Source: Formosa sp. Hel1_33_131 (GTDB taxonomy: Bacteria; Bacteroidota; Bacteroidia; Flavobacteriales; Flavobacteriaceae). From it: a DNA stretch of 32,000 nt. This document shows positions 276 through 32,000 of the stretch, in pieces. The notes under the pieces are model-generated. The model made no database searches, was not told the DNA's origin, and worked only from the letters and a program-made list of their open reading frames with translations. The stretch lies in the NCBI RefSeq assembly GCF_001735745.1, contig NZ_CP017260.1:600001-632000 (forward strand), given 5' to 3'. The position numbers and the translations under genes were made by a program. The stretch's first letter is position 1; every line of letters begins with the position of its first letter.

Positions 276-408
276 AAAACTATTAAAATCACGTATTTCT
301 TTGGAAGTACGTGATTTTTTTATACATTTATAACTGATTTTAATCCCCAGATCTAAATCTTCATAAGCGACTTAACCCGTTGTAAGCAATTATTTTATTT
401 GAATTTTA
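276..408 (+). repeat. ~134-bp intergenic repeat, copy 1 of 3 (terminator hairpin plus ~85-nt conserved tail); the most diverged copy
   Basis: AAAACTATTAAAATCACGTA..TACGTGATTTTTTTATACATTTATAAC.GATTT..CCCA..TAAATCTTCATAAGC.ACTTAAC....TAAGC.ATTATTTTATT aligns along its whole length with 6954-7087 and 7791-7924. Confidence 0.85.
285..321 (+). terminator. rho-independent terminator of trpA (inside repeat copy 1)
   Basis: Stem AATCACGTA / TACGTGATT with a 12-nt loop, followed by a T7 run and preceded by an A run. Confidence 0.75.
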
Positions 409-483
409 GATATGGGGGAGCAAACAAGATGTTTGCACTAAAATCAGTGACGTATAATGACAAGCAAAACGGTGTGTTTTCCC

Positions 484-536
484 GGGATATATAGCCGTTA
501 ACACATCTTTTTATTTGGATATAACTAGTTACCACC
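484..536 (+). repeat. two tandem attC right-arm-like segments ending in GTT cores (GGGATATATAGCC-GTTAACACA at 484-505; GGATATAACTA-GTTACCACC at 517-536)
   Basis: Both resemble the right arms of repeats B and C (CCATATACTATCC-GTTGGCAAC). GTTACCACC (528-536) is the exact reverse complement of GGTGGTAAC (1307-1315). Confidence 0.4.
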
Positions 537-542
537 AATTGA

Positions 543-821
543 ATGAAAGACATTGAGAGACATATGAAAATTAGGATTACAAAGTCTGAATTTGATTTAA
601 TTAGCGGAATTTTGGACGAGAATAAAAATTTATTTACACCAAGTCAAATAAATGATTCTGAATATATTTTATCATTTGTGGACTTTGAGCAAGCAATGGA
701 ATTTGACGAATTAATTAAAGACAAATTGGTTTATCAAGGCTTTGATAGAGAATATAATCCGAACAAATTTGGATTAATGTGTGAAAATGTAATTGACAAA
801 ATGTACGAGATTTTAAAATGA
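543..821 (+). CDS. hypothetical small cytoplasmic protein (92 aa)
   Basis: The ORF has no signal peptide. Its stop overlaps the next start (ATGA at 818-821). No family recognised. Confidence 0.5.
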   Translation: MKDIERHMKIRITKSEFDLISGILDENKNLFTPSQINDSEYILSFVDFEQAMEFDELIKDKLVYQGFDREYNPNKFGLMCENVIDKMYEILK

Positions 822-1291
822 AAAAAATAATAACCATATTTTTAATTTCACTTTTGGGTTTAAATATCAATGCTCAAGAAATTTCTGACGAACAGTATAT
901 GAATGCCTATATTGTAGTATCTGACACTTCACAAAACTATTTTGAATTAAGACAAAAAATGCTTAACCTAAATGAGAAACTGAAGACGGAAATTGACACA
1001 ATGGGAAGAGGGTTTAATAAAAAGAAAAACCTTATTTGCTTACCTGAAAATGACGAAGACGAAATTTATGCAGGTGATTATTTCCCGAGACGTTATCCTT
1101 CCGAGACTTTAAGTTTAGAATATTTGATTTATTACACAAATGGAAAGAAACCGACAGAAGGAACTATCGCATTAGTTACAATCATAACTGACAACAAGGA
1201 AAAGGCGGAAAAAAAATTGGCAGAAGTGAAAAAATATTCTGACAGAGCATTTATTGTAAACAGTCAGATTTATATGGGATGTATGCATTAA
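818..1291 (+). CDS. hypothetical secreted protein (157 aa)
   Basis: Signal peptide MKKIITIFLISLLGLNINA|QE. Translationally coupled to the upstream ORF. No family recognised. Confidence 0.6.
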   Translation: MKKIITIFLISLLGLNINAQEISDEQYMNAYIVVSDTSQNYFELRQKMLNLNEKLKTEIDTMGRGFNKKKNLICLPENDEDEIYAGDYFPRRYPSETLSLEYLIYYTNGKKPTEGTIALVTIITDNKEKAEKKLAEVKKYSDRAFIVNSQIYMGCMH

Positions 1292-1306
1292 AAAATAACA
1301 ACAAAA

Positions 1307-1441
1307 GGTGGTAACACTGTATATAGTTTATGGCGGGTGAAGTGCTAATTATGAGCGATTTAACAATTAATAAACATCGGTGCAAGTTGAAAGTTTTGTG
1401 TTTCAAAACCGCCACAAAACCATATACTATCCGTTGGCAAC
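1307..1441 (+). repeat. attC-like structured imperfect inverted repeat 'B' (135 bp)
   Basis: Layout: AAC(1313-15), 3-nt spacer, GTATATAGTTTATGGCGG (1319-36), ~72-nt centre, CCGCCACAAAACCATATAC (1409-27), 5-nt spacer, GTT(1433-35). 16 of 18 arm positions pair, with two mismatches and one bulged C. Confidence 0.55.
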
Positions 1442-1466
1442 AATATCTAAACGAGACGCAAAACGA

Positions 1467-1946
1467 ATGGAAAAGAAATTAAAACAAAGTATTCTGACTT
1501 CTTATCTGATTGGAGCACCAATTGGCATTATTGTTGTTTTCGCTACGATTTTTGTTCCGAGTTTTTTATTTGGAAAAGGACTAATGATAATTGTTATTCT
1601 TGGAACATACGGCATTTCAACAATCGGACTTGTAGTTGCGTTTTTGATTGCTCTTTGGATTGGTGGAAAATTAGCCTATAAGGATATTGAAAATGGAAAA
1701 TCATTAATTCTGACCTCTTTTAAATACTCAACTGTTGTGAATTTAATAATCTGGACAACTTTTTGTCTGATTATAGGACTGACTGCTACAGAAGAAAGGT
1801 TTCTAATGATGATTCCACCTATTATTGCTTTTGTTGTTTGTACGATTCTAACAACATTTTCAATCGGACTTTTAATTTCATATGTAATTAGACGAATAAA
1901 TAATAAACCGACTGAATTAAAAAATACAGTTGCCAACTCCGTATAA
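1467..1946 (+). CDS. hypothetical integral membrane protein (~159 aa, 4-5 TM helices)
   Basis: The ORF track starts at GTG 1380, inside repeat B. The first ATG (1467) lies just inside the unit boundary. The protein has long hydrophobic segments, and its last codons (..VANSV*) overlap repeat C. Confidence 0.6.
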   Translation: MEKKLKQSILTSYLIGAPIGIIVVFATIFVPSFLFGKGLMIIVILGTYGISTIGLVVAFLIALWIGGKLAYKDIENGKSLILTSFKYSTVVNLIIWTTFCLIIGLTATEERFLMMIPPIIAFVVCTILTTFSIGLLISYVIRRINNKPTELKNTVANSV

Positions 1947-2083
1947 AACTAATTGCTGGTTTTAGTCTACTTACGGAAATCTCTGCCTACCACAGGCAAG
2001 CTCACGGATTTTCTATTCAGTATTTATTTGCTAACTTTAGTGCTTAAAACACGCCACTAACCATACACAAACATGTTGCCCAC
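1929..2083 (+). repeat. attC-like structured imperfect inverted repeat 'C' (155 bp, more degenerate)
   Basis: Layout: GTTGCCAAC-TCC-GTATAAAACTAATTGCTGGTTTTAG ... CTTAAAACACGCCACTAACCATAC-ACAAACAT-GTTGCCCAC. The right arm aligns in sequence with that of B. GTTGCCAAC (1929-37) is the exact reverse complement of GTTGGCAAC (1433-41). Confidence 0.5.
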
Positions 2084-2134
2084 AATACGTGAAAAAATTC
2101 GTGGATTTACAGAAAATTGGAATTTAATTTGAAT

Positions 2135-2159
2135 TTAGTTAACTAATTAGTTAACTTTG
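2135..2159 (+). promoter_or_regulatory. putative TA promoter/operator: direct repeat TTAGTTAAC-TAA-TTAGTTAAC overlapping a TAACTTTG -7 box
   Basis: Two 9-mers (2135-43 and 2147-55), each containing the GTTAAC palindrome. TAACTTTG (2152-59) fits the Bacteroidetes -7 consensus TAnnTTTG and sits 5 nt before the annotated GTG start. Confidence 0.5.
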
Positions 2160-2163
2160 TAGT

Positions 2164-2508
2164 GTGACAAGGAAGGTGATTATATATAAAGAATATTTCA
2201 CTAAATTCTATAAAGCTCAAGACGAAAAGGTTCGAAAAAAAATTGGATACGCTTTAGATTTAGTTCGGTTTGAAAGACAAGTACCAAAAAAGTTTTTTAA
2301 GTATTTGGAAAATACAGACGGAATTTATGAAGTACGTGTAATTACAAGTTTTAAAAGTATAAGAATATTGTGCTTTTTCGATGGTGGCAATTTAGTTGTC
2401 CTTGGGAATTGTTTTGTGAAGAAAACTCAAAAAACACCAAAAAAGGAAATTAAGCTTGCTGAAAAAATCAAGAAAGAGTATTTAAAAGATAAAAACAAAT
2501 ATGAATAA
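2164..2508 (+). CDS. type II toxin, RelE/ParE superfamily (Gp49/HigB-like)
   Basis: 114 aa, toxin-first order, 8-nt overlap with the downstream XRE antitoxin. The pattern ..DGIYEVRV....IRILCFFDGGNLVVLGNCFVKKTQKTPKKEI.. is typical of the phage Gp49-like family. The start codon is uncertain (GTG 2164 or 2176). Confidence 0.8.
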   Translation: MTRKVIIYKEYFTKFYKAQDEKVRKKIGYALDLVRFERQVPKKFFKYLENTDGIYEVRVITSFKSIRILCFFDGGNLVVLGNCFVKKTQKTPKKEIKLAEKIKKEYLKDKNKYE

Positions 2509-2791
2509 TATAAGAGATTTCGAAGATTTACTAATTGCAGAACACGGAAAAAAAGGAACAGAAAAGCGTGATAAATATGACGCTGACTCTCTTGCTTTTC
2601 GATTAGGGATTATGCTAAAAGAAGCTAGAAAAGAAGCGAATTTAACACAAGAAGAATTGGCTGAAAGAACTGGAACTAAAAAAAGCTATATATCACGAAT
2701 TGAACGTGGATTAAGCGATATTCAAGTTTCTACTTATTACAAACTAATTGAATTAGGTCTTGGGAAACATCTGAATATTGAAATAGCATAA
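2501..2791 (+). CDS. XRE-family HTH antitoxin (HigA-like)
   Basis: LTQEELAERTGTKKSYISRIERG is a Cro/C1-type HTH. The gene overlaps the toxin stop. Confidence 0.85.
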   Translation: MNNIRDFEDLLIAEHGKKGTEKRDKYDADSLAFRLGIMLKEARKEANLTQEELAERTGTKKSYISRIERGLSDIQVSTYYKLIELGLGKHLNIEIA

Positions 2792-3050
2792 GAAAATAGA
2801 TTGGACACTTTTAATTTTAAGAAGTACCCGAATTGTTCCAGAAAAATTTTTAAAAAACCTTACGAATACAGACGGACTTTGGGAATTGCGAATTTCAGCA
2901 GGAAATGGAATATTTAGACTATTCTGTTTTTTTGACAAAGGAAACTTAATAATTCTCTTGAATGGATTTCAAAAAAAAACTCAGAAAACGCCCAAAAATG
3001 AAATTAAAAAAGCGGAACGGTTAAAAAAAGAATATTATGAAAACACATAA
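2787..3050 (+). pseudogene. 5'-truncated paralogue of the Gp49/HigB-like toxin (no start codon)
   Basis: The frame opens right after TAG 2784-86 and reads ..KKIDWTLLILRSTRIVPEKFLKNLTNTDGLWELRISAGNGIFRLFCFFDKGNLIILLNGFQKKTQKTPKNEIKKAERLKKEYYENT*. It aligns with residues ~27-110 of the 2164..2508 protein. There is no ATG or GTG in frame. The ORF track does not list it. Confidence 0.8.
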
Positions 3051-3339
3051 AAGAATCACATCATTTGATGACCATTTAGATACACAGTACGGAAAAGTCG
3101 GAACTGAATCTCGTCAGGGATTTCAAGAAGAATTTGAAACCTTTAAAATTGGCGTGCTCATTCAAGAGGAAAGAAAGAAACAACATTTAACACAACAACA
3201 GCTTGCTGAAAAAGTTGGAACAACTAAAAACTATATTTCTCGAATTGAAAATAACGCAAGTGATATACGACTTTCAACTCTTATGAGAATTATCCGAGAA
3301 GGATTAGGAGGCAGTTTAAAATTATCACTTGATGTTTAA
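3037..3339 (+). CDS. XRE-family HTH antitoxin, paralogue of 2501..2791
   Basis: LTQQQLAEKVGTTKNYISRIENN is an HTH. The gene overlaps the stop of the truncated toxin by 14 nt. Confidence 0.85.
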   Translation: MKTHKRITSFDDHLDTQYGKVGTESRQGFQEEFETFKIGVLIQEERKKQHLTQQQLAEKVGTTKNYISRIENNASDIRLSTLMRIIREGLGGSLKLSLDV

Positions 3340-3363
3340 GAATGAACGGAAAGTAAACACCCG

Positions 3364-3388
3364 CTAGCGCCACGCTTTAGTGTGGTGC
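3364..3388 (+). repeat. GC-rich hairpin repeat U1 (CTAGCGCCACGC-TTTA-GTGTGGTGC)
   Basis: Imperfect palindrome, conspicuous against the AT-rich background. Related to 3442-3466 (inverted) and 4144-4169 (same orientation). Confidence 0.7.
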
Positions 3389-3441
3389 CGAGTATGCGAA
3401 AGAGAAATAAATGAGTTACTGAATTATTTGAATTTGTTAAC

Positions 3442-3466
3442 GGCATCACGCCAAAAGCGTGACGCC
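3442..3466 (-). repeat. GC-rich hairpin repeat U2 (GGCATCACGCC-AAAA-GCGTGACGCC), inverted relative to U1
   Basis: Its reverse complement aligns with U1, including the loop polarity. It lies 53 nt from U1, giving a REPIN-like doublet. Confidence 0.65.
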
Positions 3467-3607
3467 AGCCAGAAGTAAATATTTTGGGAACTCAGCTCAA
3501 TTTTGGTTGGGCTTCAAAATGATTTTGACATTGAGCAAGAACATACTGAAAAACTCTTTTTTTATAAAAAATATAAGTTTAACAACGCTTTTTGTACTTT
3601 TGTGTAA
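3459..3607 (+). pseudogene. remnant of a HigA/VapI-type antitoxin C-terminus (N-terminally truncated and frameshifted)
   Basis: ..KYFGNSAQFWLG is read in one frame. After a 1-nt gap near 3512 it continues as LQNDFDIEQEHTEKL.., together forming the conserved HigA C-terminal signature (YFG.SA.FWL.LQ..YDL). There is no HTH or start upstream. The ORF-track ORF 3459..3644 is an artefact of this remnant. Confidence 0.6.
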
Positions 3608-3618
3608 AATAAAATATT

Positions 3619-3837
3619 ATGTACACTATTCAATTAAAAATTAGCGATAAAGTTTACGATAAGTTTATTTGGTTACTAAGTAAATTCAATAAAGAAGAAA
3701 TAGAGATTGTTAGTGAAAGTTCTGATTTCACTTGGACTAAAGAATACTTAAACAATGAATTGAATGAAATTAAGAATGGCAAAGCTACTTTTATCTCTCA
3801 AGAAGATTTTGAAAAACGATTAAATGAAATAGTGTAA
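3619..3837 (+). CDS. putative antitoxin (72 aa) of the downstream ParE/RelE-like toxin
   Basis: A small acidic ORF 11 nt upstream of a ParE-like gene, in antitoxin-first order. No family confidently recognised. Confidence 0.5.
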   Translation: MYTIQLKISDKVYDKFIWLLSKFNKEEIEIVSESSDFTWTKEYLNNELNEIKNGKATFISQEDFEKRLNEIV

Positions 3838-3848
3838 GTGACTTTTTT

Positions 3849-4132
3849 ATGAAAATCATTTATAAAGAAACCTTTGTTGTGAGGCTAGAAAAACAACTAA
3901 AATATATTTCTGAAAACAGCCCTAAATCCGCAAAAAAAAATTAAAGACTGAATTTATTCAACGGATAAAAACGATTCCTGATAACCCATACTTATTTAAA
4001 AAATCAATCTACTTTGAAAACGATTCTGTTCGAGATTTAATTCATAAAGGATATACGATAGTCTTTCGAATTAATAAAAATCAAATTGAAATATTTGGTC
4101 TGACGAGGTTTCAAGAAAAACCTACGGACTAA
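3849..4132 (+). pseudogene. ParE/RelE-family toxin interrupted by a frameshift in an A9 run
   Basis: ATG 3849..TAA 3942-44 gives MKIIYKETFVVRLEKQLKYISENSPKSAKKN*. Shifting -1 within A9 (3932-3940) continues as ..KLKTEFIQRIKTIPDNPYLFKKSIYFENDSVRDLIHKGYTIVFRINKNQIEIFGLTRFQEKPTD* (stop 4130-32). The ~94 aa product has a typical ParE-like layout. Confidence 0.75.
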
Positions 4133-4143
4133 AAATCTCCCCA

Positions 4144-4169
4144 CTAGCGCCATACGCTTTAGCGTGGTG
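4144..4169 (+). repeat. GC-rich hairpin repeat U3 (CTAGCGCCATACGC-TTTA-GCGTGGTG)
   Basis: Same core and orientation as U1. It lies directly after the ParE-like pseudogene. Confidence 0.7.
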
Positions 4170-4294
4170 TACAGTAAAAATAAATATACCAAACCTTAAA
4201 ACCCTAACGAAACCTAAATGTTAGTTGTTAGAATATTTAAACATTAATACCTCCTTAACGCATTTAAGAATTCTATATCCCGATATTTGTAAGA

Positions 4295-5443
4295 ATGACA
4301 GGAATAGATTTTAATTATGGAAAAGGGTTTACGTTCAGTAAGCACATCCCAAAGGACGTATCGGATTTTGATCGGGTGTTTGGGGTGTTTAAAGAACTCC
4401 TCACACATACCTCAGGCGATATTGAGGAAGCGTTTGAATGGCTAAACACACTGGACAACGAATACAATATTTTTAACGAGAACTATACCCTCGAAAATTT
4501 CGAAGACGACCTTAAGAAGCGAGGTTATATCAAAGAAGACATTGATCCCGATGCGGTCAAATCAGGAAACGGAACTGGAAAAGGAAAAAATATACTCACT
4601 GCCAAGCTAGAATCTGCTTTGCGCGACTATGCCCTGAACCAGATTTTTGGAAAACTAAAAAAGAGTGGACTCGGAAATCACAACACCAAAAAAACAGGTG
4701 TTGGTGATGAACGTGATGGCGATAACCGATCGTTTCAGTTTGGTGACGATTTATCTCGGGTCAACATGACCGAGAGTTTGAAAAATGCACAAATCAATAA
4801 TGGTATCTCAGACCTTCGCTTAACAGAAAACGATTTAATTGTAGAAGAGACAAAGCACAAAGCACAGATGAGTACCGTATTGATGATTGACATCAGTCAC
4901 TCTATGATATTGTACGGCGAAGACCGCATCACACCCGCCAAAAAAGTCGCCATGGCATTGGTGGAGTTGATCCATCGAAAATACCCAAAAGATTCCATCG
5001 ATATTATTGTGTTTGGAAATGAAGCCTGGCCCATTAAAGTAAAGGACCTCCCCTATTTAAAAGTAGGCCCTTACCACACCAATACCGTGGCTGGACTGGA
5101 ATTGGCCATGGACATTCTCCGTCGAAAACGAAATACAAACAAACAGATTTTTATGATCACGGATGGGAAACCGAGTTGTATTCAGCTGCCATCGGGTGAG
5201 TTTTATAAAAACAGTAACGGCTTGGACGATATGATCGTTTCTAAATGCCTTAACAAAGCAGCACAAGCACGGAAATTAAAAATTCCAATCACCACCTTTA
5301 TGATTGCCCAAGACCACTATCTCCGTGAATTTGTGGAGGTATTTACGGCGCAAAATCAAGGAAAGGCCTTTTTAACGGGACTGGATGGTTTGGGAGAAAT
5401 GATATTTGAAGATTACGAAAAAAATAGAATTAAAAGAATATGA
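4295..5443 (+). CDS. vWA (von Willebrand factor A) domain protein with a ~190-aa N-terminal region of unknown function
   Basis: MIDAS motif MIDISHS (DxSxS), downstream T (HTNT) and ITDGKPS. Its stop overlaps the next start (ATGA at 5440-43). Confidence 0.85.
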   Translation: MTGIDFNYGKGFTFSKHIPKDVSDFDRVFGVFKELLTHTSGDIEEAFEWLNTLDNEYNIFNENYTLENFEDDLKKRGYIKEDIDPDAVKSGNGTGKGKNILTAKLESALRDYALNQIFGKLKKSGLGNHNTKKTGVGDERDGDNRSFQFGDDLSRVNMTESLKNAQINNGISDLRLTENDLIVEETKHKAQMSTVLMIDISHSMILYGEDRITPAKKVAMALVELIHRKYPKDSIDIIVFGNEAWPIKVKDLPYLKVGPYHTNTVAGLELAMDILRRKRNTNKQIFMITDGKPSCIQLPSGEFYKNSNGLDDMIVSKCLNKAAQARKLKIPITTFMIAQDHYLREFVEVFTAQNQGKAFLTGLDGLGEMIFEDYEKNRIKRI

Positions 5444-6953: not shown

Positions 6954-7087
6954 AAAACTGTTAAAATCACGTATATCTTTGTATCTACGTGATTTTTTTA
7001 TACATTTATAACCGATTTCGACCCCAAGTTTAAATCTTCACAAGAAACTTAACCGAAGTTAAACGATTATTTTATTGTGAATTATTA
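6954..7087 (+). repeat. ~134-bp intergenic repeat, copy 2 of 3
   Basis: Near-identical to 7791-7924 outside the terminator loop. It starts 54 nt after the ATPase stop and ends 27 nt before the next ATG. Confidence 0.9.
6963..6999 (+). terminator. rho-independent terminator (inside repeat copy 2)
   Basis: AATCACGTA / TACGTGATT stem followed by a T7 run. Confidence 0.75.
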
Positions 7088-7114
7088 CCACTTTTGGAGT
7101 TGTAAAATAAAAAA

Positions 7115-7750: not shown

Positions 7751-7790
7751 ATAAAATTGGACGATTTAATAAAAGCTAAATTAAAGTACA

Positions 7791-7924
7791 AAAACTGTTA
7801 AAATCACGTATATCATTGGATATACGTGATTTTTTTATACATTTATAACCGATTTCGACCCCAAGTTTAAATCTTCATAAGCAACTTAACCGAAGTTAAG
7901 CGATTATTTTATTGTGAATTATTA
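7791..7924 (+). repeat. ~134-bp intergenic repeat, copy 3 of 3
   Basis: Direct repeat of 6954-7087. The two copies flank the TRIC gene. Confidence 0.9.
7800..7836 (+). terminator. rho-independent terminator (inside repeat copy 3)
   Basis: Perfect 12-bp stem ATCACGTATATC / GATATACGTGAT with loop ATTG, followed by a T7 run. Confidence 0.8.
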
Positions 7925-8116
7925 GTACACACAGATGTAACACTTGGGGGAAAGTGGTTTATACGCAGTGGCTGTATCCAATTTAAGATACTTAAATATG
8001 AAAAAAAATGATTTAAAAAACACGAAATAATGACATAAAATAACTTCTAACTTTTACCTACTTTAAAAATTTAGAAACAAACTTTACATAACCTCAACAA
8101 AATACCTACACCCCCA

Positions 8117-31533: not shown

Positions 31534-31614
31534 GTTTGAAAATAACTTTTTATTAAACCTTTATTTTTTATCTTTGGAAAGATGTAAGTTCAAAGTTTAT
31601 ATTTCAGATGAAGA

Positions 31615-32000
31615 ATGAGTGTGTTTCGTAAAATATTTGGTTCAAAAACGGATGCTTCTAAAGACAAAACTGATGAAAAAAATCAGGATCAGTTTTTAGA
31701 CTCCAGCAGCTTGCCTGTAGATGAAGCCTTTACAATCAACTTTAATAAAAATGGCGGTAAGTTTCTTTACTGCGAAAATAACGATGAAGTTCAAAGTTTT
31801 CTTGAAAATATTATTGAAGAAAATAATTGGGACAAAAAAAAGGCACTCATCCTTAATAAACATCTAAAAGAAAAATTTAAAAGTTTCAAATTTGGCTCGA
31901 CTCAAAAAACAAAAGATGCAGATTTTCTATTTACATCTTGTGAGTCTCTGATCGCAAAAGACGGATCGCTGCTTATATCCTCCAATCAAATTGCAGAAAA
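31615..32000 (+). CDS. LUD (LutC/YkgG-like) domain protein, N-terminal part (3' end outside window)
   Basis: ATG at 31615 and open to the window end; not in the ORF track. ..FTSCESLIAKDGSLLISSNQ resembles the LutC-family core. Confidence 0.6.
   Translation, partial: MSVFRKIFGSKTDASKDKTDEKNQDQFLDSSSLPVDEAFTINFNKNGGKFLYCENNDEVQSFLENIIEENNWDKKKALILNKHLKEKFKSFKFGSTQKTKDADFLFTSCESLIAKDGSLLISSNQIAE

Follow-up and report, generated by a model that had tools for sequence, protein, structure and literature searches.

The genome of Formosa sp. Hel1_33_131 carries, between trpA and a gene encoding a vWA protein, a group of small co-oriented genes separated by long imperfect inverted repeats. We have analysed this locus within a stretch of 32,000 nucleotides (NZ_CP017260.1, positions 600,001 to 632,000, forward strand), which is referred to here as the window and whose first letter is position 1. 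The region 529-2075 of the window is probably an array of two cassettes from a widespread integron-type system of marine Bacteroidota, with an Xer/XerA-like recombinase that would act in trans. Each cassette ends in an attC-like site, B (1307-1441) in cassette 1 and C (1929-2083) in cassette 2, and both sites are members of a large family widespread in marine Bacteroidota.

The sites are bounded by the outer boxes R'' (left) and R' (right), and in both window cassettes (2/2) the first bases are complementary to the R'' of the cassette's own site. Thus, GTTACCACC at 528-536 is the reverse complement of GGTGGTAAC at 1307-1315, and GTTGGCAAC at 1433-1441 is that of GTTGCCAAC at 1929-1937; the right end of site C is GTTGCCCAC (2075-2083). 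The start of a cassette is complementary to its own R'' because a crossover between the G and the TT of R' (written G/TT in what follows) leaves there bases that come from the cassette's own site. These matches had been noticed in an initial annotation made from the letters of the window, which proposed integron-like cassettes on their basis, and all of its coordinates and sequences were found to be exact upon recheck.

A family of sites in marine Bacteroidota

A covariance model of the family, for which 40 sites from other contigs and none from the window were used, detected site B at 1307-1441 with 109.8 bits (E 9e-24) and site C at 1929-2082 with 45 bits (E 1e-8), both on the plus strand; on the minus strand, site B reached 16.9 bits. 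A covariance-model scan was among the checks that the initial annotation had put forward, and with this independent model B and C were recognized on the plus strand alone. The rest of the 32-kb window rendered nothing above 18.6 bits, a score corresponding to a match at 31566-31670 that covered the model only partially and contained no AAC/GTT boxes, and that was therefore discarded as noise. No relevant family for the window sites was found in Rfam, either at the gathering threshold or at E values up to 10.

When the right-arm motif shared by both sites was scanned against metagenome contigs, at least 120 contigs matched, most of them marine. A profile search rendered 261 sites in 125 loci, with at most 10 sites per contig and a spacing of 0.6-1.5 kb, and the family covariance model identified 122 sites in 20 loci, ca. 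59 of them in pPP2 of Persicobacter psychrovividus. Two conserved subtypes, B-like and C-like, can be distinguished. Sites were co-oriented, no mixed-strand array being found among the 125 loci of the profile search, and nearly all of the open reading frames (ORFs) in the arrays share the orientation of the sites. A generic dispersed repeat, which the initial annotation had considered as an outcome that would contradict its proposal, is effectively excluded by this distribution, since copies were found only in co-oriented arrays between co-oriented ORFs.

Cultured carriers of the family include Tenacibaculum finnmarkense (plasmids), a Flagellimonas plasmid and P. psychrovividus NBRC 101262. 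In the latter, whose genome is complete, the ca. 59 sites of pPP2 (NZ_AP025294.1) extend over at least 47 kb of small co-oriented ORFs, at about 357-404.6 kb and 1-389 of the record, and the genes of this array are annotated solely as hypothetical proteins. Contigs of metagenome-assembled genomes (MAGs) labelled Kordia and Polaribacter contain single sites. A weak partial match to a C-type site (53% of the query, 76% identity) was also observed at 715-786 of MT002873.2, the genome of Tenacibaculum phage JQ.

The sites of the family are ca. 135-155 nt long and share the layout R'' (N5-Y-AAC), 3 nt, left arm, variable centre, right arm, 5-6 nt, R' (GTT-R-N5). The AAC and GTT triplets are invariant across 134 sites, with Y and R at the adjoining positions. 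The interior of the site is conserved, and hypervariability is seen in the six bases on the outer side of each triplet (before AAC and after GTT), where the 134 sites show 84 and 90 distinct 9-mers, respectively. The observation made initially for B and C, that their flanks do not fit RYYYAAC/GTTRRRY beyond the triplets, is correct, and in the family only YAAC and GTTR are kept in the outer boxes. Both spacers are unpaired, the left one being of 3 nt and the longer one, on the R' side, of 5-6 nt in 137 of 148 sites. The left spacer of canonical attC sites is of about 5 nt.

The complementarity rule was tested in 78 pairs of neighbouring sites of other arrays by comparing the hexamer that follows GTT with the reverse complement of the hexamer that precedes AAC in the next site. 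All six positions matched in 52 of these pairs (67%), as compared to 1.3% upon random pairing, and visual inspection of pPP2 showed six consecutive perfect matches.

Exchange of cassettes in related strains

The trpA-to-vWA locus was compared with contigs of the same population, from near-identical strains whose flanks are 96-99.8% identical to the window. In L004, and also in L236, L237 and L241, a single cassette of 596 nt is found in place of window positions 529-2075 (1547 nt, two cassettes). The start of the L004 cassette, GTTGGCATT, matches its own R'', AATGCCAAC. Between L004 and the window, identity is 81% within the site and rises to 99.6% once the TT of R' is reached. In L218, cassette 1 and site B are kept, and a different cassette follows after the G/TT at 1433, so that cassette 2 has been replaced. 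L235 bears at 528 yet another first cassette, G/TTAGGCAC, and has neither cassette 1 nor cassette 2 of the window; the core triplets of the L235 sites are decayed. The flank 405-527 is conserved up to G528 in L004, L235, L236 and L237, and is absent from L006; on this left side, the homology of the window with L004, L235 and L237 stops at 530-531. Three distinct cassettes, starting with TTACCACC, TTGGCATT and TTAGGCAC, are thus found after G528.

Cassettes are gained and lost as units at the G/TT junctions: the variants are joined exactly at the G/TT of 528, 1433 and 2075, which is the unit-wise variation that the initial annotation had expected to see in related strains. No empty (cassette-free) site was found among the contigs retrieved. 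The body of the site varies with the upstream cassette and the downstream DNA is constant; therefore, the site travels with the upstream ORF, and the flipped orientation, in which the site would belong to the downstream unit, was ruled out.

Two further observations concern this set of contigs. In L214, divergence from the window starts at 4894 (window 1711), inside the ORF of cassette 2 and not at a site, which may reflect some other rearrangement or an assembly chimera. In addition, the same 127-aa cassette ORF is accompanied by two versions of the site, with or without an extra 19-nt hairpin in the variable centre, in L237 (3782-3920) and L004 (1618-1774).

Folding and strand asymmetry of the sites

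In site B, GTATAT (1319-1324) pairs with ATATAC (1422-1427), GTTT (1326-1329) with AAAC (1417-1420) and TGGCGG (1331-1336) with CCGCCA (1409-1414), A1325 being opposed to C1421, and A1330 to C1415-A1416. The arm pairing initially read for this site, with spacers ACT and TATCC, was borne out by folding.

For the family as a whole, 71 distinct arm pairs were analysed, in which the arms form a helix of 6 + 4 + 4 bp. This helix is 88.6% paired, and 11 of its 14 pairs have changed on both sides in a compensatory manner. In the controls, slid arms were 26-39% paired, and none of 500 shuffles equalled the observed values. The three helical segments are split by two conserved oppositions of an A in the left arm to a C in the right arm, present in 68 and 60 of the 71 sequences, respectively. 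On the top strand, the non-Watson-Crick cells of the stem comprise 43 A.C and 2 G.T, and the remark made initially about A.C mismatches in the window sites is thus valid family-wide. Since an A.C on the top strand is a G.T wobble on the bottom strand, the bottom strand forms a continuous helix. The bottom strand was indeed the more stable one in 117 of 134 sites (p about 3e-18), and it appears from these comparisons to be the folded one. No conserved bulged (extrahelical) bases, such as those that direct strand choice from the inner (L) boxes of integron sites, were found in the family sites; the B subtype has one extra base in the right arm.

A recombinase at the head of the arrays

Among the ORFs located upstream of arrays, two tyrosine recombinases were found. 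One of them, of 297 aa, is encoded at 9329-10219 of L149, divergently and beside the array. This protein passes NF040815 (XerA-type, "site-specific tyrosine recombinase/integron integrase") with 232.6 bits (cut-off 220), and is below the cut-off both of TIGR02249 (integron integrase; 205.5 bits, cut-off 265) and of PRK15417 (148 bits, cut-off 435). It aligns to XerA (5HXY) without a break from residue 19 to 284; the alignment to VchIntIA (2A3V) falls into two parts, and 22 residues stand in place of 65 in IntI. The stretch that is missing is the IntI-specific domain. The RHRY catalytic residues are present in the aligned motifs.

Relatives or remnants of this recombinase are located at array heads in L145 and L191 and, as gene remnants, in L160, L117 and L166, and further array heads with a recombinase are those of L206, L207 to L209, L210, a T. 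finnmarkense plasmid and pPP2, where the gene spans the origin of the record. Homologues of ca. 280 aa number in the thousands and bear generic names such as "site-specific integrase", XerD or "site-specific tyrosine recombinase/integron integrase". They are 68-86% identical across classes of Bacteroidota, and are therefore unlike a vertically inherited housekeeping gene. In at least 10 independent loci the recombinase gene lies 36-90 nt from the insertion point; its orientation differs between loci.

Beside the start codon of the recombinase gene an attI-like site can be recognized, consisting of a palindrome followed by 1-5 nt and then by G/TT. In L149, the palindrome precedes G/TTAGGCAC, the first cassette starts with GTTAGGCAC, and the site of this cassette begins with GTGCCTAAC; the corresponding pair of cassette start and site start in L210 is GTTATGGGC and GCCCATAAC. 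L207, L208 and L209 have an identical recombinase and identical DNA up to ...GCAAGAC-G/TT, after which three different first cassettes are found. The attI of the recombinase P0056 reads ...GCTATACGCAATGCGTATAGCAAGAC-GTT. An attI beside an integrase gene is thus present in the related loci L149, L210 and L207 to L209, and not in the window.

In the mechanism that we propose, a cassette would consist of one or two promoterless ORFs followed by a site of ca. 135-155 nt. A tyrosine recombinase would cut and rejoin between the G and the TT of R', and cassettes would be excised as circles and re-inserted at the G/TT of another family site or of an attI-like site. Since the window contains no recombinase, one would have to act in trans for the system to be active in this genome, and the reaction is likely to be catalysed by the Xer/XerA-like recombinase of ca. 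280 aa found at the head of related arrays. The site would most likely work in vivo as a folded bottom strand, as in integrons, with strand choice apparently set by the two conserved G.T (bottom)/A.C (top) positions and not by extrahelical bases. In the structure of VchIntIA the IntI-specific domain contacts the extrahelical bases, and on the basis of this role we infer that the domain and these bases are missing together.

Features of the window

The features of the locus are summarized in Table 1.

Table 1. Features identified between trpA and the vWA gene (positions of the window)
Feature	Position	Strand	Description
Flank	405-527	+	Non-coding, up to the first junction; candidate attI-like or secondary insertion site; no adjoining recombinase gene
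Left junction, G/TTACCACC	528-536	+	Cassette 1 starts at 529; exact reverse complement of R'' 1307-1315
Cassette 1	529-1433	+	ORFs 543-821 (92 aa) and 818-1291 (157 aa), overlapping orphans, plus own site B
Site B, attC-like	1307-1441	+	R'' 1307-1315, spacer 1316-1318, left arm 1319-1336, variable centre 1337-1408, right arm 1409-1427, spacer 1428-1432, R' 1433-1441
Cassette 2	1434-2075	+	ORF 1467-1946 (159 aa) plus own site C; cassette start GTTGGCAAC
Site C, attC-like	1929-2083	+	C subtype; additional 19-nt hairpin in the centre; R'' 1929-1937, R' 2075-2083
Downstream block	2076-4181	+	No family site; HigB/Gp49-like and helix-turn-helix (HTH) pair 2164-2791; truncated second pair 2886-3339; hairpin D 3357-3470; 72-aa ORF with frameshifted ParE-like gene 3619-4132; half-repeat E 4141-4176

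None of the three cassette ORFs matched a Pfam family above threshold. The second ORF of cassette 1 has a lipoprotein-like N-terminus, and the ORF of cassette 2, whose stop codon overlaps the R'' of site C, encodes a predicted membrane protein with a weak match to DUF7027. The proteins of cassettes 1 and 2 had no tblastn match in any of the other loci collected, and exact-protein look-ups returned this locus alone. The vWA protein has a 99% match in an "uncultured Formosa sp." MAG.

L004, L235 and L237 also have the downstream block (2076-4181), which L006 lacks. The block is either a terminal cassette whose site has been lost or native DNA adjacent to the insertion point. Two of its toxin-antitoxin genes are disrupted. 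The ParE/RelE-like toxin gene (3849-4132) has a frameshift in a run of nine A (3931-3939) and is intact in L236 and L243 (93-94 aa, PF05016), and the second Gp49-like gene (2886-3050), truncated in the window, is intact in L243 (122 aa).

Other repeats are found around the array. Repeat A is a dispersed intergenic element of ca. 130 nt, located at 276-409, ca. 6955-7088 and ca. 7790-7925, with a terminator-like hairpin (285-318) and a conserved tail; it occurs three times in the window and four times in L006, the copies being 83-89% identical. We considered it as a degenerate cassette site and ruled this out, since it is a separate dispersed repeat that is unrelated to the B/C family. Hairpin D (3357-3470), a GC-rich imperfect inverted repeat (-21.5 kcal/mol), follows the second HTH gene; a half copy of it, E (4141-4176), precedes the vWA gene, and the left arm of D recurs in L006 (8319-8378) and L133 (3794-3848). 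D and E were also considered as a second type of attC: D starts with AAC-ACC like the C subtype, yet it ends in GTA and breaks the complementarity rule. Hairpin D was also not retained as a part of the system because it has no match to the family model and is rare in arrays.

Evaluation of the proposal and its alternatives

Several results weigh against the proposal that 529-2075 is a cassette array of an integron-type system whose Xer/XerA-like recombinase is provided in trans. No tyrosine recombinase was found in the 32-kb window, either by tblastn or by Pfam scans of 38 ORFs, and the flank 405-527 does not resemble the attI regions of L149, L207 or L210. No matching R'' was detected for the third unit (from position 2076 on) when GTGGGCAAC was searched for, even with one mismatch allowed, and the covariance model found no family site in the window after the toxin-antitoxin genes. 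That no integrase was in view and that no clear site followed the toxin-antitoxin genes had already been stated as caveats in the initial annotation, and these searches bear both of them out. With regard to the sites themselves, site C folds weakly when taken alone, although it is a clear member of the family, and for site B the top strand is the more stable one (-17.1 vs -13.1 kcal/mol). The complementarity rule is broken in 26 of the 78 neighbour pairs, mostly in pairs more than 1.5 kb apart, between which there are probably undetected sites, or in pairs with decayed triplets as in L235.

Two of the related strains also provide adverse evidence. The species-representative Formosa MAG, L006, differs over the entire trpA-to-vWA gap and contains no family site, so that not all of the variation at the locus is cassette-wise. 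The stretch corresponding to window 404 to 4182 (L006 6858-9886) is a different 3-kb insert, with ORFs of 226 aa (Abi-like), 152 aa and 385 aa and no cassette sites. Since this insert is wholly different, the trpA-vWA gap is also a general hypervariable island. In L218, on the other hand, site B differs from that of the window in the 5-nt L'-R' spacer alone (TCACC vs TATCC), at about 4605-4612 (window 1428-1432), amid ca. 1430 other bases that are 99.8% identical. No such change is predicted by a strict G/TT crossover, and the spacer may thus be part of the exchanged or heteroduplex region.

A difference restricted to the 5 nt next to G/TT is what would be expected of the heteroduplex overlap region in a conventional double-strand exchange of the Xer type. 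The same cassettes would then recombine at a short core made up of right arm, spacer and GTT box, and the inverted repeat would be a terminator, an element of mRNA stability or a binding site for a protein dimer. This explanation would also be in line with an Xer/XerA-like recombinase without the IntI domain that is linked to folded-site recognition, and with attI-like sites that are ordinary double-strand palindromes. We regard it as unlikely, however, because the arms covary freely (ATTT/AAAC, AGCT/AGCT, AAAA/TTTT, GCTC/GAGC, CGTA/TACG), which indicates base pairing and not recognition of a fixed sequence. Moreover, the A.C versus G.T asymmetry implies selection on one DNA strand, or on an RNA of the antisense strand, and no T-run follows the hairpins.

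It could also be the case that B and C are canonical attC sites of a canonical IntI encoded elsewhere in the genome, the Xer-like gene being incidental or having some other job. attC sites have exactly the same AAC/GTT cores, G/TT crossover, complementarity rule and asymmetric spacers; integrase-less arrays are common in other phyla (PMC4889954), and IntI1 acts on attC sites of great diversity (PMC9892861). This possibility appears nonetheless very improbable. A tblastn search with the L149 recombinase found no other tyrosine recombinase in the ca. 120 array contigs, and this search should also detect IntI, since the L149 protein matches VchIntIA with 141 bits. The proximity of the Xer-like gene to the insertion point in the 10 or more loci referred to above, with different first cassettes beside an identical gene, argues in the same sense, as do the lack in the family sites of the extrahelical bases that IntI binds and the surveys that report almost no integrons in Bacteroidetes (PMC9024848). 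Finally, that B and C are a dispersed repeat of the repetitive extragenic palindrome (REP) or miniature inverted-repeat transposable element (MITE) kind, or a terminator hairpin, with coincidental 9-mer matches, could be suggested by the other dispersed repeats of the window (the three copies of A and hairpins D and E), but is effectively refuted by the presence of only two, adjacent copies in 32 kb, by the invariably arrayed and co-oriented sites of the 125 loci, by the excess of complementarity over random pairing (67% vs 1.3%) and by exchange exactly at G/TT in three places.

Comparison with known systems

The arrays of this family resemble those of sedentary chromosomal integrons, such as the Vibrio cholerae superintegron with its VCR-type attC sites, in being long and co-oriented and in containing mostly orphan small ORFs together with toxin-antitoxin pairs. 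They also have in common homogeneous imperfect palindromes of ca. 130 nt with AAC...GTT inverse cores, crossover at G/TT, complementarity of the cassette start to R'', an asymmetric unpaired spacer between outer and inner boxes, an apparently folded bottom strand, and a recombinase and an attI at the head of the array. They differ in the recombinase, which is here a ca. 280-aa protein that aligns end-to-end with XerA, has 22 residues in place of the 65 of VchIntIA and is below the TIGR02249 cut-off. They differ as well in the sites, which have two conserved A.C/G.T positions in place of extrahelical bases and conserve only YAAC/GTTR in the outer boxes, and in the host phylum, Bacteroidota, where surveys found almost no integrons.

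In function the system, which occurs in abundant marine Flavobacteriia and in cultured strains, is an integron; as a member of the class it departs in two defining respects, the IntI domain and the extrahelical bases. The reading of these genes as integron-type cassettes put forward in the initial annotation stands therefore as regards the AAC/GTT sites, the G/TT crossover and the complementarity, and does not stand as strict membership, given a recombinase without the IntI domain and sites without extrahelical bases.

Taken by itself, the window element is an integrase-less mini-array, in agreement with the initial assessment that it was at best an array of the integrase-less (CALIN) type. 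It resembles CALIN elements (PMC4889954) in having two sites within 4 kb beside housekeeping genes, with no recombinase nearby. CALIN elements are, however, defined by matches to the attC model of IntegronFinder, and the sites described here were called by a family-specific model. In addition, the reuse of the first junction by three cassettes suggests a live insertion site and not a decayed CALIN-like remnant. Integron cassettes can also insert at secondary genomic GTT sites, in insertions of the attG type. The window array is comparable in its location, in an intergenic gap without an integrase, and the removal of the cassettes would leave ...ATAACTAG/TTGCCCAC..., a plain GTT. It is unlike an attG-type insertion in that the same G/TT has taken at least three different cassettes in one population. 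With Xer/XerA-dif systems, the arrays share a recombinase that passes NF040815 and has the RHRY residues, as well as an attI-like site that is a short palindrome; the gene is located here, however, at the head of cassette arrays and not at a chromosome dimer-resolution site.

Integrons are defined by a tyrosine recombinase with an IntI-specific additional domain near patch III (PMC4889954, PMC9668308). Surveys of Bacteroidetes in 2016 reported no more than integrase-alone elements (In0); in 2022, a single complete integron was reported, in Salinibacter (PMC9024848). Bacteroidota are not among the taxa covered by taxon-specific attC models, and in one genome paper on Tenacibaculum no integrons were found with IntegronFinder. 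In a non-exhaustive search of the literature, we found no published description of flavobacterial or other Bacteroidota arrays of the type described here. Together with IntegronFinder, Messier and Roy (2001) are reportedly a source of the definition by the additional IntI domain near patch III.

Implications

The results may be extended to a broader proposal, to which we give even chances of being right: that Bacteroidota (Flavobacteriia, Cytophagia and relatives) carry an integron lineage of their own, with arrays of ca. 60 cassettes, an Xer/XerA-like integrase that either never gained the IntI domain or has lost it, and conserved G.T wobbles that would replace the extrahelical bases. Such a lineage could represent either an independent invention of the integron principle or a surviving intermediate between Xer and IntI. 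The proposal can be tested directly in P. psychrovividus NBRC 101262 and T. finnmarkense, both of which are culturable. If it were confirmed, the definition of the integron would be widened, and these arrays would serve as a natural test of the features that single-strand recombination and strand choice truly require. Confirmation would also bear on the origin of IntI from Xer. Moreover, it would reveal a large pool of cassette genes in ocean bacteria, one that present detection tools may overlook because they require the IntI-specific domain.

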